This document shows, piece after piece, positions 5,026 through 64,000 of a stretch of DNA of 64,000 bases (positions are counted from its first letter, which is position 1; every line of letters begins with the position of its first letter). This DNA is from a virus (Duplodnaviria; Heunggongvirae; Uroviricota; Caudoviricetes): IMG/VR virus record IMGVR_UViG_3300041955_001975, positions 26,738 to 90,737 of that record; one strand, 5' to 3'. The translations under genes and the position numbers were made by a program. The notes under the pieces were generated by a model. That model did no database searches, was not told where the DNA came from, and saw only the letters and a program-made list of their open reading frames with translations.

Positions 5026-6005
5026 GGGGCGACTTGCCGGGTTCGTTGGATTCGTTGAAGTGCTTGCTCGTACACGGCCTGCTTGATCTCGGCGGCAAAT
5101 GCCATCCGCCCGGCTTCCACCGCCGCGATCGAGGCGGTGCAAAGGCCGCCGAACGGCTCCCACACCACGTCGCCCGGGTCCGAGCAACTTTTCACGAGCA
5201 ACTGCATGAGGGCGAGCGGCTTCTGATTGGGATGGACCACGCTGCCTTGGACCTTGATCCGTTCCTTGCCGCGCACTGCCGGGACGTGCCAGACGTTGGT
5301 TACCCCGGCCTCACAGTGAAACTTCCCGCGAAGCTGCTCCCACTGTGAAGCCGCCAGGCTCGTCTCGCCGTCAACCGAAAAGTAGGGACGGCCCCAGGGA
5401 TCGCCGTGCGTGTTGGCGTAGTCCACCAGCCGTTGGAACACGTCGGGCGGCGGGAAGTACCACAGATAATCGCCGGTGAGATACTTGCGGGTGGCGGCGT
5501 TCTTCACGCCGCACGCCTTGTTCGACTTGGCGAGAGGCAGTCCGGTCCGCCGCCATTCCGCCCGGAGCCACTGCTGGGCAGAAAGCGGGGAGTCCGCGAC
5601 GGCCAATCGAAACTGGGGTTGCCGGACGTAGTGGACGCAGACCTCGGTGACGACGGGGAACTTCCGCAGCGTTTGCGTGTTCGTGTTGCCGGCGACGTGG
5701 GCCAGACCCTTGTCCCAGACGCAGCACGCCCGGTAAATCCAGCCCGCGTCCCGCAAGACGGGGTGGACTTCCGCCCAGCCGACCTCCGTGTTCCAAAACC
5801 AAAGCGTCGTGCTCGCGGTAGCACGGCGGGTCCATGCCGCAACGTGCGGCTCGTACCACTGGCGAAGTTGCTCCGGCCGTGCGAGATCGCCGTCGTAGCC
5901 ACTGAGACCGTAGGGCCCATCGGAAACGATGAGCGCCGGCGAGTCCCACTGATCGTAGTAGATCAGGGCGTCTCCGCAGCAGAGATGGATCAAGGGATCT
6001 CTCAT
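5022..6005 (-). CDS. DNA methyltransferase (N6_N4 MTase, beta class)
   Basis: N-terminal SDGPYG motif IV-like region. C-terminal HPNQKP...VWEPFGGLCTASIAA motif I region typical of PF01555-type enzymes. Start set at MRDPLIH. Confidence 0.6.
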   Translation of the reverse strand: MRDPLIHLCCGDALIYYDQWDSPALIVSDGPYGLSGYDGDLARPEQLRQWYEPHVAAWTRRATASTTLWFWNTEVGWAEVHPVLRDAGWIYRACCVWDKGLAHVAGNTNTQTLRKFPVVTEVCVHYVRQPQFRLAVADSPLSAQQWLRAEWRRTGLPLAKSNKACGVKNAATRKYLTGDYLWYFPPPDVFQRLVDYANTHGDPWGRPYFSVDGETSLAASQWEQLRGKFHCEAGVTNVWHVPAVRGKERIKVQGSVVHPNQKPLALMQLLVKSCSDPGDVVWEPFGGLCTASIAAVEAGRMAFAAEIKQAVYEQALQRIQRTRQVAP

Positions 6006-14161: not shown

Positions 14162-14938
14162 TCATTCCAGGACGATGTTGTTCGGCGTCGGGCCGTGATC
14201 CCAGTCGTAGACCCGCACCGAGTCGCCGGTGATGTTGACGAAGCTGTTAACCTGGGTACACCAGGAGCCCGAGTTGTAGTACCACTCCCCCTGACGCCCG
14301 GGGGTGTGCGTATGCCCGCCAATCACGATGTCGCACTCGCCGTTGTCCACGGGCTGCTTCAGGCCGGCGATCAGTTCTTGATCTCGCGGCTTCTTGCCCC
14401 AAAGCCACTCGTGGAAGGCGACCATCTTTTCCAGGCTGCCGACAAACAGGTCCTCGATGCTCGATCGCCCCCTCATGGGTCCGCCGTTCTTGTCCTCCAG
14501 CAGCCCCGTGATCGTGGCCAGGATGCGGCTGAAATCGGGCATCTCGTTGGAGCAATACTTATCGGCCTCGTGGCCGTGCATGATCTTGATCCGCCGGCGG
14601 CCGTCATTCAGAACGAATGGACCGCACAAGGTGTCGAATAGCGGGTGATTCAGGAAGTGCGCGCCGATGAAGTGGAGTAGGTCAATGTCGTGGTTGCCCA
14701 CGACGTAAATGGCCTGCATCGCCGCCAGGCGATCCAACAAGGGGCCATAGTGCTCGACCGACCGGCTGAAGTTGCACTGCCAGAGATCGAACAAGTCGCC
14801 CGCAATAATCAGGCGGCCGTGTTGCTGCTCCACGAAGTCCAGAAAGCGATCGAACTGCTGCGGCCGATCGTTCCACGCGAAGCGATCGCGGGGGCCGCCA
14901 TCGCACAGATGCAAGTCAGAGACTACGAAATGATTCAT
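14162..14938 (-). CDS. calcineurin-like metallophosphoesterase
   Basis: Motifs SDLHL, GDLFD, GNHD, GHEAD and GGHTH. Start set at MNHFVV, so it does not overlap the tRNA. Confidence 0.6.
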   Translation of the reverse strand: MNHFVVSDLHLCDGGPRDRFAWNDRPQQFDRFLDFVEQQHGRLIIAGDLFDLWQCNFSRSVEHYGPLLDRLAAMQAIYVVGNHDIDLLHFIGAHFLNHPLFDTLCGPFVLNDGRRRIKIMHGHEADKYCSNEMPDFSRILATITGLLEDKNGGPMRGRSSIEDLFVGSLEKMVAFHEWLWGKKPRDQELIAGLKQPVDNGECDIVIGGHTHTPGRQGEWYYNSGSWCTQVNSFVNITGDSVRVYDWDHGPTPNNIVLE

Positions 14939-14968
14939 CGGTCCTCTCCAGATTACGTAACGCATGAG

Positions 14969-15040
14969 CTGCCAGGGCAGGACTCGAACCTGCAATGACG
15001 CGATTAACAATCGCGGACCTTGCCATTAGGCGACCTGGCA
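14969..15040 (-). tRNA. tRNA-Asn (anticodon GTT)
   Basis: Manual cloverleaf: acceptor TGCCAGG/CCTGGCA, anticodon stem CGCGA/TCGCG with loop TTGTTAA, T-arm GCAGG-TTCGAGT-CCTGC, discriminator G. CCA is not encoded. Confidence 0.6.
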
Positions 15041-15104: not shown

Positions 15105-15458
15105 CTAATCACGTGGTCTCGTCGAACGTGTCGAAGCCTTCGTCGTCAAGGTTGTCGTGCCGCTCCTCGTGCCGCTCGGGAATCGGCACTTCTCCCGTAA
15201 CTCGGCGATCACGTCCTCAAGGGTCTTGTATTCGCCGCGCTCATAGGCTTCGATGCACCGCCGCTCCATCTCGGCGTCGTACTTGACCACCACGTCGTCC
15301 GTGGCGAAGTGCATACCGAGCCACTCCCACCAGACGGTGAAGTGCAATTCGTGCTGAGCGTCCCAGTACCAGTTGCGACGGCAGAGCGGCACGAGGGTCT
15401 GAAAGAGGAATACGAAGTCGGACAGGAACGTGACCAGGGTCAGGACAATGCGGAACAT
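15105..15458 (-). CDS. hypothetical membrane protein
   Basis: From MFRIVLTLVTFLSDFVFLF (hydrophobic N-terminus). The ORF track's upstream extension is low-complexity. Confidence 0.3.
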   Translation of the reverse strand: MFRIVLTLVTFLSDFVFLFQTLVPLCRRNWYWDAQHELHFTVWWEWLGMHFATDDVVVKYDAEMERRCIEAYERGEYKTLEDVIAELREKCRFPSGTRSGTTTLTTKASTRSTRPRD

Positions 15459-15471
15459 GGTTGTCTCCTTC

Positions 15472-15909
15472 TTATCGGTGGCCTCCGCCGCCATGACTGC
15501 CACCGCCACGTGGACCAGGGGTAGGACCAGGACGCAGACCAGGATTGTAGCGCGGCTCGGGCCGTCGCGGTTCAGGCCGAGGCTCCGGCCGTCGCGGTTC
15601 GGGTCGCATTCCAGGGCGCTCGCCTGGCATGATGATGGGCGGTCCGACAATGACGGGCGGCTCGACGATGATGGGCGGTTCCACCACAATGGGCGGCTCG
15701 AAAGCCGGCGGCTGGACAATGACAGGAGGCCGGATGACCGGCGTGACAATGACGGAGCCGTCAGGGATCAGGAACCTGCTGCCGTCCGGCGTCACGAGAA
15801 TTGAGCCATTGGGAACAGCGACCGTGTCAGCCTTGACAGGCGCGCATGTTCCCAGAACAAGCAGCAGCAAGACAATCAAGAGAACGATGCCGAAGGTGAA
15901 GCGAATCAT
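15472..15909 (-). CDS. secreted proline-rich repeat protein
   Basis: Signal-peptide-like MIRFTFGIVLLIVLLLLVLGTCAP. Then VEPPI(I/V)V and RRPEPRPEP repeats. Confidence 0.45.
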   Translation of the reverse strand: MIRFTFGIVLLIVLLLLVLGTCAPVKADTVAVPNGSILVTPDGSRFLIPDGSVIVTPVIRPPVIVQPPAFEPPIVVEPPIIVEPPVIVGPPIIMPGERPGMRPEPRRPEPRPEPRRPEPRYNPGLRPGPTPGPRGGGSHGGGGHR

Positions 15910-16502: not shown

Positions 16503-16715
16503 TCACCTCACGTTTTGCAGCAGAAAGTCCACAAGCCCCTGCGGGTTAAAACGAAGCTCGTCGCCCGTGTCCAACACAATCATGCCGGGCGGAAAGATGA
16601 CCCTCGCAACACCATTGACCGCAGTGATGGTCGTACTCGCCAGGTCGATGCTCTCGATCCGTTCACCGTCACGCCAGTGTTCAATTGCGCATTTCATCGG
16701 AGCCTCTACATCCAA
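16503..16715 (-). CDS. hypothetical protein
   Basis: ORF only; 70 aa. Confidence 0.3.
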   Translation of the reverse strand: MDVEAPMKCAIEHWRDGERIESIDLASTTITAVNGVARVIFPPGMIVLDTGDELRFNPQGLVDFLLQNVR

Positions 16716-17020
16716 AGATGAATCAGCCAGCCCAGCGTTGTGGAAGCCAATGCGCCTGCAAGAGACTGCCAGACGCTACACTTCGCCTCAAGCCGGTGCA
16801 GCCCCAGCAACACGACAAGGGCCAAGGTCAGGCCGATGGCAGCGAGGATGCCGATAGGCGGCAGGCCCAAGGGCACAACGAACCAGAGCCACAGCTTCGT
16901 GACGCACCAAGCCCTGACCACAACCGCCGCGGCGAGCATGAGGATGGATGTGAAAGTGATCGCGCCGACGCCGGCCGCGACAATCGCCTCCAGCTTCTTG
17001 AACTCTTCGTTGTTCTTCAT
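16706..17020 (-). CDS. multi-pass membrane protein
   Basis: Three predicted hydrophobic helices (AIVAAGVGAITFTSILMLAAAVVV, LWLWFVVPLGLPPIGILAAIGLTLALVVLLGL). Confidence 0.4.
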   Translation of the reverse strand: MKNNEEFKKLEAIVAAGVGAITFTSILMLAAAVVVRAWCVTKLWLWFVVPLGLPPIGILAAIGLTLALVVLLGLHRLEAKCSVWQSLAGALASTTLGWLIHLWM

Positions 17021-19234: not shown

Positions 19235-20098
19235 TCAGGCGGCCGGCCTGTAGATCGCACCGTCCCCACTGTCGTCGTCAGCGTCCTCGCCGCCCTCGTC
19301 GTCGGGGTTCAACACGCAAGCGCCTGAGTAGTCGGGAGGCAACTTCTCCGTGCCGTCCGTAAGCTTGGGAACGGCCGCCACCGGAGTCTCGGGATTCAGG
19401 GCCCACAGGATGCCCATCTTCTTGGCCCAAGGAATGATCCGACGCATCGGAATGATGAAGTTCAGACCAGGACCGGCACCCTGGGTCAGCATTCCGATGT
19501 ACCTGCCGTCTTCCAGATAGACGCCGCCGCCAGACGAGCCGGGGTAGCCCATCACGGTAGTCTGCTCGAACATCTTGCCGGTCTTGAGCAGGTCCCGGTC
19601 GGTCTGCGAAATGATGCCGAGGCTTATCGAGTCATAGGTGCCCAACGTGCAGCCAACATGAATCAGCTTCGTTCCGATCTGCTGGATCGAGCCCGTCAGA
19701 TCGAACTTCGCACCGACCGTCGTAGGCCGGAAGTTGTCTTGCAGAACTTCCAAGAGGGCCAGGTCTTCCCCGTCGTCCGGGTCGCTGTAGGCAATGACCT
19801 TGGCCTCGATGTCCGACTTGCCGATCGCACGGCCGCCATCGCGGAATTCCTGCTTGATCGTCGGATTCTTGAACGTGCCGTCCGGCTGCATGAGATGCTG
19901 GACGACGTGCCCTGCCGTCCAGACGTAGGTGCGGGTGACCTCCCCGACCTGGCGGGTCACCAGGACTCCGGTGCCGAGGCCCTTGCCGACATCGACGAGG
20001 CAGGTTGTGGCTTGCAGGTTGTCGTAGACATTGGCAAAGGCAGTGCCCGCAAACAGCAACACAGCGCACAGAGACAGAATCACGGAACGAGACTTCAT
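19235..20098 (-). CDS. secreted trypsin-like (S1) serine protease
   Basis: Signal peptide MKSRSVILSLCAVLLFAGTAFA. Catalytic His (TAGHVV) and Ser (GSSGGGV) contexts. Confidence 0.6.
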   Translation of the reverse strand: MKSRSVILSLCAVLLFAGTAFANVYDNLQATTCLVDVGKGLGTGVLVTRQVGEVTRTYVWTAGHVVQHLMQPDGTFKNPTIKQEFRDGGRAIGKSDIEAKVIAYSDPDDGEDLALLEVLQDNFRPTTVGAKFDLTGSIQQIGTKLIHVGCTLGTYDSISLGIISQTDRDLLKTGKMFEQTTVMGYPGSSGGGVYLEDGRYIGMLTQGAGPGLNFIIPMRRIIPWAKKMGILWALNPETPVAAVPKLTDGTEKLPPDYSGACVLNPDDEGGEDADDDSGDGAIYRPAA

Positions 20099-26359: not shown

Positions 26360-26457
26360 CTACACCTACAGGAGATGTCAAAAACGGGCGGTTTTTTCAG
26401 AAAAGGGGCACCGTTTGTGAAAAAAACACTCGTATCTGACATCTCCTGTAGGTGTAG
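26360..26457. promoter_or_regulatory. 21-bp perfect inverted repeat pair with 56-bp AT-richer spacer (candidate origin/operator/centromere-like site)
   Basis: CTACACCTACAGGAGATGTCA ... TGACATCTCCTGTAGGTGTAG, in the divergent region between the ParB-like (minus) and primase (plus) genes. Confidence 0.5.
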
Positions 26458-29657: not shown

Positions 29658-30115
29658 TGAAGTACAACATGACCGACAGCGGCAAGCGGCAGCAATTCGG
29701 CAGCAACCTCGCCATCCGGGACACCGCGGACGACAAGCCGCGCCCCGACCTGATCTCTCCCTTCGCCGAAGAGCGCCAGGGCCAATGGCTCCGCATGGGG
29801 GCCGCCAAGTATGCCGAACGCAACTGGGAACGCGGAATGCCCTTCACCCGCTGCGTCGCCTCGCTCAAGCGGCACGTCATGCGATACCAGCAGGGCAAGC
29901 GCGACGAGGACCACCTGGCCGCCATCATGTTTAACGCAATGGCCCTGATCCACTACGAGGAGATGATCGAGCGCGGCCTGCTCCCGACCGAACTGAACGA
30001 CATGCCCGTCTACAGCAAGCCGGCGGCCAAAGACAATAAGAGCCGTCGCAGGCCGGCGGCCATGAAGAAACACAATCCGCGCAAGCCGGCCTCCCCCACG
30101 AAGAGACGTAGGTGA
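29654..30115 (+). CDS. hypothetical protein with basic C-terminal tail
   Basis: 153 aa; C-terminus KSRRRPAAMKKHNPRKPASPTKRRR. Confidence 0.35.
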   Translation: MMKYNMTDSGKRQQFGSNLAIRDTADDKPRPDLISPFAEERQGQWLRMGAAKYAERNWERGMPFTRCVASLKRHVMRYQQGKRDEDHLAAIMFNAMALIHYEEMIERGLLPTELNDMPVYSKPAAKDNKSRRRPAAMKKHNPRKPASPTKRRR

Positions 30116-30151
30116 GTCTTACAAGGCTCTGCCAGCATAGACATCGGAATT

Positions 30152-30185
30152 CTGAAACCAGTTAGCCGGTTCCTGCAACTCTTTA
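30152..30185 (+). promoter_or_regulatory. conserved intergenic motif copy F (plus orientation)
   Basis: ctgaaaccagttagccggttcctgcaactctt, about 30 nt upstream of the exonuclease gene at 30216. Confidence 0.45.
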
Positions 30186-30215
30186 AGAGGGCGGGCAGCA
30201 CCTTGAGCACAGACC

Positions 30216-30833
30216 ATGAAAACCTACTCCTCCCTCGTGACCTGCAACGGCAATCTGTTGGTCTCCATCGACCTGGAGACAACCGGCACCCAGCCGGGCT
30301 ACCACGAGATCATCCAGATCGCCATCGTGCCGCTGAACAGCGACATCCGCCCCATCGCGGAGTTGCCGGTCTTCTACACCAACATGAGGCCGAAGTTCCC
30401 GCGCCGCGCGGAGAAATCGGCTACCGCCAAGCACGGCATTACGATCTCCGACCTGCTGATGCAAGCGCCGGAGCCGGAAAAGGTCGAGGACATGCTGGTG
30501 GAGTGGTTCGAGCGGCTGGAACTGCCCTTCGGCAAAGTGCTCGTCCCCCTGGCCCACAACTGGGCCTTCGAGTCCAGCTTCCTGAAGGCATGGCTCGGCT
30601 GCCCGATGGTGGACCGCATCTTCCACTCGCACGCCCGGGACGGGATGCTCACGGCCATTGCGCTCAATGACCGGGCGGCCTTCGCCGGAGAGCCGGAGCC
30701 CTTTAACCGGGTGGGTCTCGGCTCCATCTGCCACAAGCTGGGGATCGTCAACACGAAAGCGCACGACGCCCTGGCCGACGCCTATGCCGGGGCCGAGGTC
30801 TACCGCGCAATGGCCCTGGGAATGGTGGGATAA
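30216..30833 (+). CDS. DnaQ-like (DEDDh) 3'-5' exonuclease
   Basis: Exo I VSIDLETTG, Exo II HNWAFE, Exo III HDALADAYAGAEVY. Confidence 0.7.
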   Translation: MKTYSSLVTCNGNLLVSIDLETTGTQPGYHEIIQIAIVPLNSDIRPIAELPVFYTNMRPKFPRRAEKSATAKHGITISDLLMQAPEPEKVEDMLVEWFERLELPFGKVLVPLAHNWAFESSFLKAWLGCPMVDRIFHSHARDGMLTAIALNDRAAFAGEPEPFNRVGLGSICHKLGIVNTKAHDALADAYAGAEVYRAMALGMVG

Positions 30834-31198
30834 TGAGCGCAGAACCACGACCCGACCTGGCAGCCATTGAACTCACGCTCCCGCCGCCCGGCCCAAAGGA
30901 CACGGAGCGGACCTTCCACCGTCCGATCTTCGAGCCCGATGGTGCGATCACCTACCCGAAGACTCCAAGCGACTGGGAGCCGCCGCAGGACATCAACGGC
31001 TACGTCCGCGACCCCGACAACAAGTGGCGGTTCCTGCCACTCTGGCTGCCCTGCGGGCTGCGTTATCAGATGGCCTTCTTGAAGCCAAGCTGCGGCTGCA
31101 TCGACATCATCATGCGCTGCAACAACCCACAGGCATCCCTTTACGGTGAACGGCTGTCCCACACCGCCTGTGAATCGTGCCAGAGGAGAATAACATGA
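30833..31198 (+). CDS. Cys-rich hypothetical protein (GYVRD motif)
   Basis: Contains INGYVRDPDNKWRFLPLWLPCG plus CGC and CESC pairs. Paralogous to the next ORF. Confidence 0.35.
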   Translation: MSAEPRPDLAAIELTLPPPGPKDTERTFHRPIFEPDGAITYPKTPSDWEPPQDINGYVRDPDNKWRFLPLWLPCGLRYQMAFLKPSCGCIDIIMRCNNPQASLYGERLSHTACESCQRRIT

Positions 31199-31752
31199 AA
31201 GAACCCTGCACCGACTGTCCCCAGATCGCAATCCCGTTGCCGGGCAGCCAGCGGCCTGTAGCGCCTGCCTCGACCGTCATTCTCAACTTTGGCAGCCCGC
31301 AGCAGCACTCCCATCGGTTGGTAGCGCAGGCCATCCCGGCCGATGCCGCCCTGACGCACGGGCGTCCCGCGTGCCATGACGACGGCTCGCTGGAGTTCCC
31401 CGTGGAAGGGCACCCGGACATCCACGGATACGTGCGGGACAGCCGGAACCCGCGAGTCTTCCATCCGGCATGGCCGGAATGCGTCTATCGGGTGCTGCGC
31501 GTGACTGCGGACAAGCAGCTTGTCGTCACCGGACACTGCAACGGACCGCTAGCGGCACGCACGCGGCAGCCACTCACTACAGAGATTTGCCAGGCGTGCC
31601 CCGCCCGGCGTCCCCATCTGACCCGGGCGCTGCCTAAGAATGCCGATGAAATCAATGCTGCCGTGAGAGCCAGGTTGAAGCCTACTGGTAAAACTGCGAA
31701 TGAGCCATCCCCGCCCGGTCAGCCTGGCTCATCATCAGCTTCAGTACCTTAG
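31195..31752 (+). CDS. Cys-rich hypothetical protein (GYVRD motif), paralog of 30833..31198
   Basis: CTDCP...IHGYVRDSRNPRVFHPAWPECV...CQACP. Its 3' end overlaps the convergent SPFH gene by about 70 bp. Confidence 0.35.
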   Translation: MKEPCTDCPQIAIPLPGSQRPVAPASTVILNFGSPQQHSHRLVAQAIPADAALTHGRPACHDDGSLEFPVEGHPDIHGYVRDSRNPRVFHPAWPECVYRVLRVTADKQLVVTGHCNGPLAARTRQPLTTEICQACPARRPHLTRALPKNADEINAAVRARLKPTGKTANEPSPPGQPGSSSASVP

Positions 31753-32257
31753 TCTCAGCGAAGTCCACCAACTTCGAGCGGACAACGTGGACGCCAAACT
31801 GCCGCAACTCCTTGCGGACGGCATGAGTCAGCGTCGTAGTCAAGGTCTGGTCCGCGATCCCCTTCATAATCTCATCGTAGGTGTGGGTGGCGACCACACC
31901 GACCACCGTGGCCTGGGTCAGGTCGTTGATCGTCACGTCCACGTCCCAGTTGACCTTGCCGATGGCCTGCACCACGTCCCGGATCTTGTAGACCACCAAG
32001 GTCTTGACCGTAACTTTCTTGCCGTCCTTGGTGGTCAGGACCTGGTCAGGGATCGAAAGCGTCTGGCGGGCCGTGACCAGGACTTCCACCTCGGTCGTCA
32101 GGGGCCAGTACCAGTGCAGGCCAGGCGGCATCGCCTTGACCTTCCAGCCATGTACCCACTTCACCCCGGCATGAGTCGCCCGGACAATGACGATGCGAGG
32201 GCAAAAGCGAAAGACCGCCTCAATCAGTTGATTAAGCCACGCGAAGGCAGATTCCAT
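31682..32257 (-). CDS. SPFH/band-7 (stomatin/prohibitin-like) domain protein
   Basis: SPFH core LTTKDGKKVTVKTLVVYKIRDVVQAIGKV...VVGVVATHTYDEI. Confidence 0.6.
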   Translation of the reverse strand: MESAFAWLNQLIEAVFRFCPRIVIVRATHAGVKWVHGWKVKAMPPGLHWYWPLTTEVEVLVTARQTLSIPDQVLTTKDGKKVTVKTLVVYKIRDVVQAIGKVNWDVDVTINDLTQATVVGVVATHTYDEIMKGIADQTLTTTLTHAVRKELRQFGVHVVRSKLVDFAETKVLKLMMSQADRAGMAHSQFYQ

Positions 32258-32362
32258 CGTAGTGTCTCCAGAAAGAGAAAGGGTGTCCAGGCGTAAGCCG
32301 GGGCACCCTTTCGTCGTTTACGGCGTGCTGCGGGTCCTGCTGGGGACCCGTTAGGAAAGCCG

Positions 32363-32635
32363 TCAGGGAATCGGGCACGGAGCGTCGGGGTCCGGGTTCG
32401 GACTGCCGGGCTGCAAAAGCTGCCGGCTGCGCGATGCCTCCCTCACGCTCATCAGCGTGCTCTTGAGATCGGACCTGCGAGGGTCGATCGAGTCCAGATC
32501 ATGGGAGGCGCGAGCAGCCCGCGCCGCCTCCCGAGCGTCTTGAATGTCCCGGCCGACATCGTTAGGATTGCGGCCCTGGGCCTCAATCAAGGCGATGCCC
32601 GGCGTCGGGTTGGTGGCCTTGCTTACGTTCTGCAT
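32363..32635 (-). CDS. small paralog family protein 1 (MQNV...AQGR family)
   Basis: MQNVSKATNPTPGIALIEAQGRNPNDVGRDIQDAREAA...DAPCPIP. One of four tandem paralogs. Confidence 0.45.
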   Translation of the reverse strand: MQNVSKATNPTPGIALIEAQGRNPNDVGRDIQDAREAARAARASHDLDSIDPRRSDLKSTLMSVREASRSRQLLQPGSPNPDPDAPCPIP

Positions 32636-32652
32636 GGATGCCCTTTCTTGGG

Positions 32653-32949
32653 CTACACGATGGGTTGTGGAGAAGGGGCGGCCGTATCCGTGGCCACGGC
32701 CCTGGGATAAGTCGCCAGGGCCGGCTCGCCTCCCCACTCCCCGCCCCGCCTGTCCACGACCGCCTGCCTCATGGCCAGCAGCTTGCGTTGGACGGGCGTG
32801 TGGTCCACTGACACAGCGCGTTGGCGGACCTCCGCCGTGTGCCGAGCGTCCTGAACGTCCTGGTAGACCTCATCGTGACTGCGGCCCTGGGCCTCGATCA
32901 TCACGATGTCCGGCGAGGCGCTGTTGGTATTACCTACGTACTGAGTCAT
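32653..32949 (-). CDS. small paralog family protein 2
   Basis: MTQYVGNTNSASPDIVMIEAQGRSHDEVYQDVQDARHTA... Confidence 0.45.
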   Translation of the reverse strand: MTQYVGNTNSASPDIVMIEAQGRSHDEVYQDVQDARHTAEVRQRAVSVDHTPVQRKLLAMRQAVVDRRGGEWGGEPALATYPRAVATDTAAPSPQPIV

Positions 32950-33036
32950 GGTCGCCTCGTGTCGGGGATCGGACATCCCCATGACTGCGGCCTTGGGCCG
33001 CAATCATGGTGATGTCTGGGTGTCCCCTTCGTCTTG

Positions 33037-33315
33037 TCAGGGAATCGGGCACGGGGCATCCGTGTCCGGGGTCGTACCGATGGTGGGCGTCAGATCACGC
33101 TCCGCGTGCGCCTTCATCATCATGGCCTTCAGCCTGTCCTTGACCCCGGAGGTGAGGGTGCCGGAGGGTGCCGCTTCGTGCGACAACCGCGCCGCCGCCA
33201 CCGTCTGCCGGGCATTCTGGATGTCCTGGTGGACGGCATCGCTGTCGCGGCCCTGGGCCGGAATCAGCACGATGTCCGGCGATGGGCTGGTGACGGGTTT
33301 TCCTACGTTCTGCAT
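33037..33315 (-). CDS. small paralog family protein 3
   Basis: MQNVGKPVTSPSPDIVLIPAQGRDSDAVHQDIQNARQTV...DAPCPIP. Confidence 0.45.
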   Translation of the reverse strand: MQNVGKPVTSPSPDIVLIPAQGRDSDAVHQDIQNARQTVAAARLSHEAAPSGTLTSGVKDRLKAMMMKAHAERDLTPTIGTTPDTDAPCPIP

Positions 33316-33380
33316 GGGAATGTCCCTTCTTGCGTGAGCAGCGATCGGTGCCTGGTCTACGAGACCCGGCACAAGGTCGC

Positions 33381-33629
33381 TTACTCGGTGGCGCTGTCCG
33401 GCACGCTGGCCACGCCGGCGGCCTCGCTGACCTTCTGGCTGACGGGCTTCCAGCCGGCCTGGCCATAGACCTGGGCCTGGTCCCGCTCGGGAACCTGCCC
33501 CGTCGCCTTGTTGTACTCGTTGAGCGACTTGGCCATCGCCACGTCGCGGTCCACCTGGTCGCCCGTCGCACCTTGCGCCTGGATCAAAACGGTGTCGGGG
33601 CACTTGCCCAAAGTTCCGATGTTCTGCAT
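33381..33629 (-). CDS. small paralog family protein 4
   Basis: MQNIGTLGKCPDTVLIQAQGATGDQVDRDVAMAKSL... Confidence 0.4.
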   Translation of the reverse strand: MQNIGTLGKCPDTVLIQAQGATGDQVDRDVAMAKSLNEYNKATGQVPERDQAQVYGQAGWKPVSQKVSEAAGVASVPDSATE

Positions 33630-33715
33630 TTTCGTACTCGCTTTCTGAAACAGAGAAAACAACACAACACAGACGGAAACGAACCTACATCGGTCCGCCT
33701 CTCACTCGCACTACG

Positions 33716-33895
33716 CTACTTCTTGCGATGCTTGGCGAACTGCGCCAGTCGCTTGGCCAACGCGACCTGCCGGTTGGTCGTCGCATCCTTGTGGGGCCTG
33801 GCCTCGAACTGGGAGAGCGTCATGCCCGCCGCCTTGGCCTTCGCCGTCAACGCCCCGGGGTGCTGGATCGCCCCCTGAATCCACTTGTCAGCCAC
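33716..33895 (-). CDS. conserved small phage protein (59 aa)
   Basis: GTG start with GAAGGAGG 7 nt upstream. Sequence ADKWIQGAIQHPGALTAKAKAAGMTLSQFEARPHKDATTNRQVALAKRLAQFAKHRKK. Not in the ORF track (too short). Confidence 0.4.
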   Translation of the reverse strand: MADKWIQGAIQHPGALTAKAKAAGMTLSQFEARPHKDATTNRQVALAKRLAQFAKHRKK

Positions 33896-33918
33896 GAGAT
33901 GCCTCCTTCACGAAAAGG

Positions 33919-36900
33919 TTAGTAAACGATCGCCGAAACCAGGGACGCAACAGTGCTTGCGTCGGTCTGAATTGCCGTGAACTGGGCCGAATTCAGCGTG
34001 GCCCCCCACGCCTGAGAGACAAAAGGCGCGATGAGAGTTACGGTACTGGCCATGCCGAGGGCCAGGTTCGACACGTCGGCCGCCAACCGGGCAACGTCCG
34101 TCCCAAGCCGAGTGGCCGCCGTCACAATCGCAGTCGTCGAGCCTACCGAGATGCCGCGCACCACATTGGCCACGGCATCCAGTTGCACGGTCGCTGCCGA
34201 TCCCGGCACGTTGTAGAGGTAGTCCGACATGGCGGGTGTGTACGCGGCCTCGGCCTTCGCAAAATCCATCTTCAGGGCATACGTCGCACTGGTGTTCGTG
34301 GGGTCGATCACCGGGGCACCGACCTGGCCCAGGCTAAAGAAATCCCCCAGGTAGCCAAAGTTCTTGAGACCGGGATTCTTGCTGTCCATGATCTTCGTCG
34401 TGGAAAGGTCGAGCACAACGGCGGCAGGCACGGGGATGTCGGGGACCGACGCCTCCTGCAAGTAATCCAGGTTCAGGTCCAACTGCTTGGGAGATCCCGA
34501 AGTTGTCCCGGCATACTGATTGGGAAACACGACCGGCTGTGCCGTAAAGCCCACGTCCGTAGGCGTCGGGTCGCCCCAGTCGGCGTGCGGCCCGAAGATG
34601 ACGTTCGGACCGCCGACAAAGACTCCCCGGAGAATAGGCTGAATGCCGCCGGTAGGCACCGTGGAGCCGTCTCCCGTCAGGCCGCCGTCCGCCGCCGGTG
34701 CAACGGCATAGCTGGTGGACGGCAGTTGGCCGACCGGCAGGGGGCCGCCGGCATTCATACCGATGCCGCCGCCCCCGAAACCCACCGTCTCCTCCACGGA
34801 CAGCGGCCAGGTCTGGCTGGTCGGCAAATTGGCCGGCCAGTAGAAGGGGTTCTGCGTCATCGCCCCCGCATTCACCGGGCACTCGCACTCGAAGTCGATG
34901 CAGTTCTCCGCGGAGTTGTAGGCGGCCTTCTGCACCAGCACGGGCACGGCCGCCGAGGCGATCGCCCCAGGGACGTTGAACGTGACGCAATCGAAGGTCT
35001 CCAGGTTCAGCTTGTTCAAGAACGCGCGGAACCTGATCCGCTTCCAGATCATGGAGTAACGGATGAGCCAGAAGGTGGCCATCTTGAGGATGATGTCCGG
35101 CTGATTGAAGATCCACCAGTCGTAATCCTTCTCCCAGAGCCCATAGCGCGAGACGTTGTGCCTCAAGACGATCAACTGCTCCTGCTGCTCCCCCGGCTCA
35201 GGAGCGTAGCCCATCCTCCACTTGACGTTCATCTTGGTGACCAGGTTCTCCGTGTCCGTGGAGGCGATCTCCATGCCGCGCTCGGAGTCGATGTCGCTGG
35301 TGGTGATCGTGTCCACCGGCGTCGGCGGCTCAGGCAGGTAGGTGAGGTAGACCACTTCGTTCTCGATCCAGACCGCACAGCGGCACTGGAAGGCGATGTC
35401 CTTGAGCACTTGCAGCACGTTCTTGCGATCCAGCAAGGGGAAGTTGGCCGGGAAGGGGGCCAGCTTCGTGCGGCAATGGTTGAAGGAGGTCGCGTCCCAG
35501 GTCAGGTCCGTATAGTTCTCGATGAGGTACTCCAGGATGTCCACGATGTTCGGGCCGATCGACGACTGAAACGTGACGTAAATCTGGTCCGACCAGCCTG
35601 TGATCCAGTTGGTGTTCAAGTCCTGGTAGACCACCAGGGAGAGCCGTTGGTTCAGCACCACCTGCACGGCCGTGATGCTCCCGTACTGCACGGTCTCGAC
35701 CGTGTACCAGCTCGGCGGCACCACGTTCAGCACGCGCTGGCCGTTGACCGTCTGGTACGCCTTGACGCACAGCACCTGGCCGGGCGTGATGGAGGCGATG
35801 AAATTGCAACCCTGATTTGTGCCCAATTGGACCTTGGCCCCTGCGTCCGCCCAGAACTGCTTGGCGGTCAACATCGGCGGCTTCACGATGGGGGCCGTCG
35901 GCGTCGTGAGAATGGTGACCGCCTCGTCCAGAAGGCAGGGGTTAGCAGACAAGCTGCCAAGGCTGCCGCAGGGTATGTCGGCGGTGAAGTGCAGTGTGCT
36001 TACCGGCGGCGGGTTTAGCAGCGGGCAATCAATGAGATGCTGTGCCGCCTTCAGCTCCGCGTTCGCCACTTCCAGGTTGTAGTGAAGGATAACCTGCGGG
36101 TCCTCCGTCGCAGTGATGGTGAAGACCTCGCCCTGGAACGATCCCTGGAGGTATGCGCTGCCGAGCGTGAGCCACAATTGCTGGTTTTGCGGGAAATCCT
36201 CTCCCCCGAGTATGTGGATCGGATTGGCACCGGTGAATCCGGCCAACTCCGACAACTGCCGTGCGCGCGTGGCCCTCATGCAGGCTTCCTTATGATTCAG
36301 CAGGAATTCCTCGTTGGCCATCTGGTTGGAAATCGCCTGCGCCTGGTCCTTGTACTGCTGGTACTTGACCGGGTCCACGTCCTGCCAAAGGTCGGCCGCC
36401 TGCTGATACACGTTCATTTGCTGGCCTTGCTTCCAGAGGCCAAACAGCGTGGAGGGGTCGAAGTCCGTCCCGTTGGCGTACAGCGGCACGACCTCGCCGG
36501 TCCAGGTCACGAATCCCACGGGGTCCAGGGTCACGCCTTCGACGGCCAGATTGACCTCCAAGGCGGGGTAGTCGGCCACCTGTCCAAAGACCATCGGCCA
36601 CGCCTTGCCGATCATCTCGCTGGGAATGTAGGGAAAGCTGCCCTCCTCCACCGAGAAGCCGACTTCCAGGTTCTCCAAAGGCGAGACGATCGTGACCTTC
36701 AAGGTACGATCGCGCTCGTTCCAGGTCACCGGCGTATTGATTCGCCCGCTGAAGACCAGGAACTTGTCGGCCAGATCGAGCCCCTGGAACCACTGGTAGA
36801 TGCGGACATGGACATTGTAGATGTCGTAGGCGTCGAAGATCGCCTTGAGCGACCCGTCCGTGTCGTCCAGCGTCAGCCCGACCTGCGCCGAGCTGCCGTT

Positions 36901-37098
36901 GAAGGACAGGTCCAGCACGTCATCCAGGTCACCCAGTTCAACGATCTTGCCGGGGATGGGCGGCGGCCCGGGGAGATCCCTGTCGGCGTAAGACTGCGTG
37001 GCAGCACCCTTGTACCAGTCGATCTCGACGATCGAGATCGGCTCAGTCCCATACTGGGCGGCGAGCTTGGCCAGGCCGTTGCTGGAAATCGTTCGCAT
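33919..37098 (-). CDS. large tail protein (tail tip/host-specificity J-like)
   Basis: 1059 aa at the distal end of the tail module. Has a Gly-rich C-terminal region. Preceded by conserved motif copy E. Confidence 0.45.
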   Translation of the reverse strand: MRTISSNGLAKLAAQYGTEPISIVEIDWYKGAATQSYADRDLPGPPPIPGKIVELGDLDDVLDLSFNGSSAQVGLTLDDTDGSLKAIFDAYDIYNVHVRIYQWFQGLDLADKFLVFSGRINTPVTWNERDRTLKVTIVSPLENLEVGFSVEEGSFPYIPSEMIGKAWPMVFGQVADYPALEVNLAVEGVTLDPVGFVTWTGEVVPLYANGTDFDPSTLFGLWKQGQQMNVYQQAADLWQDVDPVKYQQYKDQAQAISNQMANEEFLLNHKEACMRATRARQLSELAGFTGANPIHILGGEDFPQNQQLWLTLGSAYLQGSFQGEVFTITATEDPQVILHYNLEVANAELKAAQHLIDCPLLNPPPVSTLHFTADIPCGSLGSLSANPCLLDEAVTILTTPTAPIVKPPMLTAKQFWADAGAKVQLGTNQGCNFIASITPGQVLCVKAYQTVNGQRVLNVVPPSWYTVETVQYGSITAVQVVLNQRLSLVVYQDLNTNWITGWSDQIYVTFQSSIGPNIVDILEYLIENYTDLTWDATSFNHCRTKLAPFPANFPLLDRKNVLQVLKDIAFQCRCAVWIENEVVYLTYLPEPPTPVDTITTSDIDSERGMEIASTDTENLVTKMNVKWRMGYAPEPGEQQEQLIVLRHNVSRYGLWEKDYDWWIFNQPDIILKMATFWLIRYSMIWKRIRFRAFLNKLNLETFDCVTFNVPGAIASAAVPVLVQKAAYNSAENCIDFECECPVNAGAMTQNPFYWPANLPTSQTWPLSVEETVGFGGGGIGMNAGGPLPVGQLPSTSYAVAPAADGGLTGDGSTVPTGGIQPILRGVFVGGPNVIFGPHADWGDPTPTDVGFTAQPVVFPNQYAGTTSGSPKQLDLNLDYLQEASVPDIPVPAAVVLDLSTTKIMDSKNPGLKNFGYLGDFFSLGQVGAPVIDPTNTSATYALKMDFAKAEAAYTPAMSDYLYNVPGSAATVQLDAVANVVRGISVGSTTAIVTAATRLGTDVARLAADVSNLALGMASTVTLIAPFVSQAWGATLNSAQFTAIQTDASTVASLVSAIVY

Positions 37099-63818: not shown

Positions 63819-64000
63819 GGTGTGCTGCTGAATGTAAAAGAGGTTGCATTACAGGCTCGCGGCAGCTCGTGGCTTTAGTGGTGGGCGTTCATCCTGGCAA
63901 CCTCATGTTTCCCGTTGGCTTTGGGCTCTTGCCTTGGAGAGCACAAAGCCAACGGCCCTTGGTCGCCAAAGGGCCAGAGGTTCATTATGTGGGGTCGGTC

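Follow-up and report, generated by a model that had tools for sequence, protein, structure and literature searches.

What is the role of four small paralogous genes that lie in tandem between the tail genes and an SPFH gene of a metagenomic phage, at a locus where lysis genes might be expected? The genes occupy the minus strand at 32363-33629 of a 64,000-nt stretch (hereafter, the window) of the IMG/VR virus record IMGVR_UViG_3300041955_001975 (Caudoviricetes), and window positions are used throughout. The original prediction described them as an array of recently duplicated, unannotated genes at a lysis or accessory locus. We found that the array forms an accessory cassette of small soluble proteins that is specific to one lineage and dispensable, and we tentatively propose, at somewhat less than an even chance, that these proteins are modular binders that interact with the host late in infection.

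The array consists of four open reading frames (ORFs) in a row, genes A to D (82, 92, 98 and 90 aa), that span exactly 32363-33629. With the gene for a basic 59-aa protein they make up five small minus-strand genes between a large tail protein gene (33919-37098, minus strand) and the SPFH/Band_7 gene (Table 1), a placement on which the original prediction was correct. Alignment of the four proteins revealed a common N-terminal core of ~35 residues, MQN(V/I)G..(S)PDI(V/A)(L/M)Ix(A)QG(R)..D.V..D(V/I)..A(R/K). The shared core described earlier therefore holds in outline but not in every member, as gene C begins MTQYVG rather than MQN, and gene A has AQGA and DVAMAK in place of AQGR and DIQxAR. 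Pairwise BLASTP matched A with B (7e-7) and C with D (5e-8) across the N-terminus only, and B with D along the full length (2e-15). Apart from the DAPCPIP ending common to B and D, which had been noticed before, the C-terminal halves have diverged. When a core profile was run against the whole 64 kb in six frames, it matched the four genes and one intergenic fragment only; this fragment, a truncated fifth copy of the core at 32972-33016, is missing from the earlier description. The claim of four consecutive, paralogous minus-strand genes without a family match is thus borne out, and we conclude that A-D are real, homologous, diverged paralogs.

Our closest genome relative, L016 (we number related loci with L and family proteins with P), is a region of a Pirellulales (Planctomycetota) contig from a metagenome-assembled genome (MAG; CAWJKP010000005.1, 661971-682240 of 698,710 bp) that is collinear with the window and 92-96% identical to it. 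Genes A-D look translated and count as genuine genes because their GC content at third codon positions (GC3) is high (A 0.90, B 0.84, C 0.80, D 0.78), resembling that of the phage's long genes, because motifs of the Shine-Dalgarno (SD) type can be read from the sequences 5' of the B, C and D starts (the motif is weak at A), because every ORF is intact in the comparison with L016, with ratios of nonsynonymous to synonymous substitution rates (dN/dS) of 0.29 for A, 0.08 for B, 0.38 for C and 0.12 for D, and because the reading frames are preserved in orthologues that are only ~50% identical. GC content at second codon positions (GC2) is 0.45-0.55 in the four genes, and alternative ORFs overlapping them have lower GC3 or higher GC2 and are less gene-like.

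All four genes are under purifying selection, yet they evolve faster than their neighbours. In the same phage pairs identities were 49-59% for gene A and 53-71% for the B-type gene, as against 71-90% for the 59-aa gene, 72-98% for SPFH and 73-86% for the exonuclease. The tail protein, ~40% identical in these pairs, evolves faster than the small-gene family. For the 59-aa gene the dN/dS against L016 is 0.04.

Two further elements of the original prediction, conserved DNA just upstream of each start and a recent origin of the copies, did not survive. The supposed upstream sequence, tacgttctgCAT, is the reverse complement of ATG CAG AAC GTA, codons 1-4 of the genes (MQNV); since it lies inside the genes, it adds nothing beyond the protein motif. 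Genes B, C and D share only 34-44% identity, so the copies are old or diverged quickly after duplication. Compared with the single B-type gene of two-copy phages, B is 53-63% identical, D 46-51% and C 38-47%; B is closer to the B-types of L006, L010 and L014 (53-63%) than to its own neighbours. The split between A and B is older than the sampled lineage, and the family has at least two old subtypes, of which the B-type expanded to three intact genes (B, C and D) in the clade of the window.

These subtypes recur across the family. A-type proteins are acidic, 61-88 aa long, and carry the motif ...QVPE..AQVYDG.W...; orthologues of gene A are present in L006-L015, L024, L029, L034 and L035, and a protein identical to that of gene A, P0011, occurs in metagenomes. 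B-type proteins are ~60-98 aa long and end in (G)PDPD(A/C)P(C/V/L)PIP. Orthologues of the divergent gene C (P0003 and P0004) retain the Cys in this region (APCPQP). Extra variants were found in related loci. The core is conserved in P0033, P0029, P0037, the third gene of L024 and the middle genes of L029 and L035. Across the family the N-terminal core stays constant while the C-terminal parts vary from ~25 to 60 residues and differ in kind.

The number of family members varies among related phages, a point that the original prediction had raised as worth checking. The common order in relatives is tail protein, 59-aa gene, A-type gene, one B-type gene, terminator, SPFH gene and a convergent replication block. 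Four copies (A plus three B-types) are found in the window, L001, L003 and L016; three in L024, L029/L030 and L035 (the members in L029/L030 and L035 are short); two in L006-L015; one, an A-type only, in L034; and none in L020-L023, L026 and L028. The 59-aa gene precedes the first family gene in every family-bearing locus, and the insertion always begins with an A-type gene right after it. In L024, A, B and the terminator are followed by a third, diverged member directly before SPFH, and in L025 both A and B are present but the SPFH gene is absent. A barely recognisable relative of the family occurs in L027.

We also surveyed 80 IMG/VR contigs that carry an SPFH gene, counting family members within 4 kb. 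There was no member in 72 of the 80; one contig had one member, four had two and three had three. In about two dozen of the surveyed contigs the 59-aa gene abuts SPFH, leaving no space for an insert. Homologues of the SPFH protein fall into at least 200 clusters with 50-91% identity, and SPFH is present without the array in most relatives. SPFH is therefore a conserved core gene and the small-gene family an optional insertion. Because 72 of 80 SPFH contigs lack the family and L025 lacks SPFH, the array is dispensable and not tied to SPFH. With 0, 1, 2, 3 or 4 copies at one and the same site, flanked by the 59-aa gene and the SPFH gene, the family varies as a moron does, and the accessory half of the lysis-or-accessory proposal accordingly stands. 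Morons of temperate siphophages (e.g., lambda bor/lom-type) are likewise optional genes that sit between conserved ones where the late region ends, polymorphic in presence and absence among otherwise syntenic phages and bounded by terminator-like hairpins. Unlike them, the array is a multi-gene paralog family rather than a single gene, includes no membrane or surface protein, and has no promoter of its own that a scan of the sigma-70 type identified.

We searched for the identity of the family at the level of sequence and structure. Proteins A-D had no significant match in PADLOC and, noise below threshold aside, none at E <= 0.1 in Pfam, PHROGs or NCBIfam; weak Pfam matches to Thiamine_BP, YqgF and UPF0180 were far under the family cut-offs and were dropped. 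A profile search of PDB sequences gave chance matches only (E near 1), and Foldseek found no match at E < 4 between the model and viral structures. The family is small and comes to about 25 clusters from a single phage lineage, with 24 clusters in 5.8 billion proteins and 21 clusters in an exhaustive profile search of 1.8 billion representatives. Two of these 21 were spurious: the long proteins P0026 and P0034, with 9-12 matched stretches, were rejected on inspection as unrelated low-complexity repeat proteins, one a bacterial protein with S-layer-like repeats and the other the tail of a eukaryotic receptor. True members whose context was looked up share the same gene context. Literature searches on phage SPFH proteins and planctomycete phages turned up nothing relevant to the small-gene family. 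The family may be older and more widespread than profile searches detect, as the relative in L027 (2708-2902) is a 64-aa ORF directly after the 59-aa gene whose N-terminus, MQTYGQLKSYDPRVMILPNP, keeps the family pattern in its first ~17 residues only.

The proteins are hydrophilic, with pI values of 4.4-9.1, and A-D contain no hydrophobic segment, signal peptide or lipobox. Against a threshold for a hydrophobic segment of a mean Kyte-Doolittle value of ~1.6 over 19 residues, the maximum was 0.03-0.40 in A-D and below 0.7 in all family members. Structure prediction, another check raised originally, could be carried out but gave low-confidence models: AlphaFold2 with the family alignment modelled D with helices at 24-48 and 52-74 (predicted local distance difference test, pLDDT, 64) and A with one helix and a small hairpin (pLDDT 56), both with extended termini. 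Together these predictions describe an orphan family of soluble proteins in which no enzyme domain is recognised.

We propose that the array, inserted at the 3' end of the tail gene block with the 59-aa gene on one side and the terminator and SPFH gene on the other, would supply a set of modular binders. The shared N-terminus (MQNVG, a short variable linker, a hydrophobic strand DIVLI, a turn AQGR and the first part of an amphipathic helix) would be a common module for docking or oligomerisation, and each paralog would owe its own target to the variable helical middle and the C-terminal peptide. The proteins would then act on the host late in infection, for example in counter-defence, host takeover or exclusion of competitors. 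A host-interaction role seems the most likely because the genes are dispensable, differ in copy number and evolve fast; a role in virion assembly or lysis is unlikely. Anti-CRISPR and other anti-defence islands resemble the array in being made of small orphan genes in a narrow phage group, with rapid evolution and variable content at a fixed position. They differ in that island genes are unrelated to each other, whereas the array members are paralogs of one family, and in that the array has no linked helix-turn-helix (HTH) regulator and a late rather than early location.

Several considerations weigh against this proposal. The binding function of A-D is putative, as are its partner, the timing of expression and any effect on the host. 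The strand and helix of the docking module are read from a sequence pattern only, and the models are of low confidence. Known anti-defence genes are usually early, unlike this cassette, which follows late tail genes, and no HTH family match that might represent an Aca-like regulator was found in the 59-aa protein, the tail protein or SPFH. The rapid divergence may have no deeper cause than weak constraint on proteins that are partly disordered. Finally, the host assignment comes from a single MAG contig, whose end falls within the phage region. The presence of L016 on this large Pirellulales contig, near one end of it, suggests a prophage or a host link, and a link to Pirellulales is likely on this evidence; we saw no integrase family in the window. 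To our knowledge very few phages of Planctomycetota have been characterised. If the family does act on the host, it would be among the first entry points to phage-host conflict in this phylum, and the natural series of 0-4 copies would be a ready-made comparative experiment. As it stands, it is a new orphan family of accessory genes in a metagenomic phage; the kind is familiar and would not surprise a specialist.

The main rival to a host-interaction role is that the proteins are packaged and ejected like the internal proteins of T4, the N-terminus serving as a virion signal and the C-terminal parts as effectors that enter the next host together with the DNA and counter, for example, restriction or other defences. 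We consider this unlikely. The array comes after the structural and tail genes and shares their strand, its products are small and soluble with a conserved N-terminus and a variable remainder, and paralog number varies at one locus. The T4 locus (IPI, IPII, IPIII) is similarly a tandem set of small diverged proteins with a conserved N-terminal segment, encoded with late genes and varying in number among related phages. The T4 targeting sequence, however, measures ~10 residues and is cleaved by the prohead protease, whereas the conserved segment here is much longer (~35 residues), and Pfam scans of the window ORFs found no prohead protease family, although an unrecognised protease is possible; the only peptidase in those scans is trypsin-like and lies in the replication region. 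The coat protein is P22-like, a type that normally matures without a prohead protease. A terminator-like hairpin separates the preceding structural genes from the array, and the array proteins show no sequence similarity to T4 internal proteins or to internal protein families in PHROGs. A more specific variant, which we regard as more doubtful still, is that the core is a loading or docking signal for interchangeable effector tails (A-type, B-type and further subtypes) that would be made late and possibly delivered by the virion against Planctomycetota defences. If this holds, the T4 internal-protein arsenal would have a new counterpart, specific to this family, in a phylum whose phages have hardly been studied.

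Partnership with the SPFH protein, in the manner of NfeD or by modulating an SPFH/FtsH-type membrane complex, is improbable. In most loci the array lies immediately beside SPFH on the same strand, and the third member in L024 lies past the terminator, directly before SPFH; the arrangement recalls the NfeD-SPFH operons of bacteria and archaea, in which a small gene stands beside an SPFH gene on the same strand. NfeD, however, has membrane segments and an oligonucleotide/oligosaccharide-binding (OB)-fold domain, whereas A-D have no membrane segment and no NfeD domain in Pfam, and their models are helical. The association is non-obligatory in both directions: SPFH is far more widespread and more conserved, and L025 has A and B without SPFH. 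A conserved terminator also lies between array and SPFH. A dedicated SPFH partnership is thus contradicted by the surveys of gene context.

A non-canonical lysis cassette of holin, antiholin or spanin components is very hard to sustain. The position after the tail genes is common for lysis genes in siphophages, and the earlier remark that the window has no canonical endolysin or holin is upheld, in that neither was recognised among its ORFs by Pfam or, among the matches listed, by PHROG. A holin, however, has at least one transmembrane segment and an endolysin a cell-wall hydrolase domain, and no family member has a hydrophobic segment, signal peptide or lipobox, nor do A-D have an enzyme domain in Pfam, PHROG or NCBIfam. 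The genes are also absent from most related phages (72 of the 80 contigs, and L020-L023, L026 and L028), which must still lyse. Candidates for membrane or lysis functions, none of which matched a named lysis family, may lie elsewhere on the minus strand, in the other half of the window: a 104-aa protein with three hydrophobic segments (16706-17020), a 214-aa protein with two (15105-15749) and a trypsin-like peptidase that has one at its N-terminus (19235-20098). As far as the sequence tells, with no membrane segment, no enzyme domain and most relatives lacking the genes, a lysis role is excluded, and the array should be annotated as neither a lysis cassette nor an SPFH partner.

We give equally little credence to the idea that the core is a repeated DNA or RNA hairpin element in which the ORFs are incidental, although one copy does behave in this way. 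A repeat finder detected five copies of a 48-nt unit; this core is quasi-palindromic, and its copies score as inverted repeats too. The non-coding fifth copy, in the spacer between B and C, is closest to the core of gene C (core hidden Markov model E = 1e-4), lies in a frame different from that of gene C, and folds as a near-perfect 20-bp hairpin with a minimum free energy of -36.2 kcal/mol (z = -6.5 relative to dinucleotide shuffles and -4.9 relative to synonymous recodings). It is one of only four hairpins this strong in the 64 kb, and its stem is identical in L001, L004 and L016. The four coding cores, by contrast, are only mildly palindromic and show no more structure than synonymous recodings that encode the same peptides (z -2.7 to +2.0), the peptide but not the palindrome persists in A-type cores, and synonymous changes in gene C between L016 and the window break the stem; conservation of the genes therefore acts at the protein level. 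High GC3, dN/dS below 0.4 and frames kept across 50%-diverged orthologues, together with the lack of an Rfam match for the conserved core, also count against a nucleic-acid element. Folding, dinucleotide shuffles, synonymous recoding and Rfam thus led us to reject this account for the four genes and to accept it for the fifth copy only: a naturally quasi-palindromic core has been perfected into an RNA or DNA structure in this one fragment.

The fifth-copy hairpin is probably an intercistronic stability or processing element. Like repetitive extragenic palindromic (REP)-type intercistronic stem-loops, it and the hairpins in the A-B spacers are strong GC stems between cistrons with no U-tract; it differs from them in that it stems from a coding fragment of its own gene family and not from a dispersed repeat. 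It offers a small, clean case of coding sequence recycled as RNA structure. An upstream ORF of 25 codons (MIAAQGRSHGDVRSPTRGDHDSVRR; 32947-33024, minus strand) starts within the hairpin and ends a few codons into gene C, and it could be a candidate for coupling or gating the translation of that gene.

The remaining proposal, that A-D are precursors of a ribosomally synthesised and post-translationally modified peptide (RiPP), is the most far-fetched: tandem paralogs with a conserved N-terminal part and a Cys near a Pro-rich C-terminus would suit it, but the extreme C-terminus is conserved (PDPDAPCPIP among B-types) rather than hypervariable, intact orthologues (P0010, P0014 and gene C of the window) carry Leu or Ser in place of the Cys, Pfam scans found no modifying-enzyme family nearby or elsewhere in the window, and a leader-cleavage motif is absent.

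Structured elements also mark the borders of the array (Table 1). A terminator-like hairpin equivalent to that between gene D and SPFH lies directly upstream of SPFH in eight loci (the window, L016, L006, L010, L011, L014, L021 and L023), with differing stem sequences and the same architecture, and hairpins of this type follow the B-type gene in L024 (975-1020) and L025 (about 5290-5335). On the other side, the stem-loop at 33676-33701 recurs in the window, L006, L010, L011, L014, L016, L024 and L025; in the consensus fold of these eight loci, 6 of 10 pairs show compensatory changes, and the sequence GTAGG is invariant in the loop and 3' stem. This stem-loop, which had no match in Rfam, might terminate transcription or serve in regulation or processing. 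The array, which closes the late gene block, thus has structured elements on both sides. Stronger GC hairpins than that of the window occupy the A-B spacer in L006, L010 and L011. The sigma-70-type promoter scan, which covered 30000-35000 and does not extend to promoters of the host group, gave one chance-level match inside the tail gene (34364-34392).

Table 1 Features of the small-gene array and its flanks in the window
Feature	Position	Strand	Description
SPFH/Band_7 gene	31682..32257	-	191 aa; Pfam PF01145, E = 6.5e-21; conserved neighbour outside the family
Intrinsic-terminator-like hairpin	32270..32311	-	A-tract, GC stem, T-tract; 14/16-bp stem; between gene D and SPFH
Gene D	32363..32635	-	B-type, 90 aa; C-terminus PGSPNPDPDAPCPIP; final gene ahead of the terminator
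Gene C	32653..32949	-	98 aa; most diverged B-type; N-terminus MTQYVG, C-terminus APSPQPIV
Truncated fifth core copy / hairpin	32972..33016	-	B-C spacer; virtual peptide DITMIAAQGRSHGDV
Putative remnant of the ribosome-binding (SD) region of the fifth copy	33018..33036	-	CAAGACGAAGGGGACACCC; aligned by eye with GCAAGAAGGGACATTCCC upstream of gene B
Gene B	33037..33315	-	B-type, 92 aa; C-terminus DAPCPIP
Stem-loop in A-B spacer	33348..33372	-	GUGCCGGGUCUCGUAGACCAGGCAC; spacer fold -25.7 kcal/mol
Gene A	33381..33629	-	A-type, 82 aa; acidic, pI 4.7; first family gene after the 59-aa gene
Stem-loop with T-rich tail	33647..33703 (stem 33676-33701)	-	Between the 59-aa gene and gene A; terminator-like match
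59-aa basic protein gene	33716..33895	-	pI 11.2; phrog_20603

Codon 4 of most B-type genes, including those of the window (33304-33306, 32935-32937 and 32624-32626), L006, L010, L011 and L025, is the Val codon GTA, the rarest Val codon of the phage (23 of 527). In this position it re-forms the GTAGG of the stem-loop upstream of gene A. We considered the recurrent GTAGG or rare GTA codon as an operator and set the idea aside, as a preference for AT-rich codons near starts is a simpler account; selection for such codons is the probable cause.

Individual loci showed further peculiarities. At L024 1-2391, the cassette is followed by the N-terminus of a large tail protein, so that either the order is permuted relative to the window or the assembly is circular or collapsed. 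At L025 5271-5914, the B-type gene and terminator are followed by ~640 nt without an ORF and by no SPFH gene; this stretch holds three copies of a ~45-nt repeat (GCAAATGCCCxTCGCCGCTxGCGACTCTCTTxGTG) that may be iterons or a regulatory region. At L003 1417-2208, the SPFH frame is broken after ~45 codons and an opposite-strand gene for an Rpf-like transglycosylase (PF06737) follows, probably an assembly chimera and otherwise a different junction. Where the terminator-like hairpin lies directly before SPFH, this gene sits between the hairpin and a convergent replication operon.

The remainder of the window points to a siphophage-like element, with genes for a gpA-type terminase, a P22-type coat, a tape measure protein, Laminin_G_3 fibres and collagen-like proteins, as well as PolA, a ligase, methylases and several ParB-like proteins. 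Neither blastn of the region nor tblastn of SPFH and B found a match among 50,697 phage records, and the 59-aa protein had only a marginal match there, to an archaeal virus. A tRNA-Asn gene (GTT; 14968-15040, minus strand) overlaps the called start region of the ORF at 14162-15010, the true start of which is probably further downstream. Two other strong palindromes were observed in the window: an AT-rich one at 26392-26425 (TTTTTTCAGAAAAGG..GTGAAAAAA) lies in a divergent intergenic region and may be an operator or a bidirectional terminator, and one at 63912-63955, with a GC-rich stem of 17/18 bp, lies just past the terminase gene.

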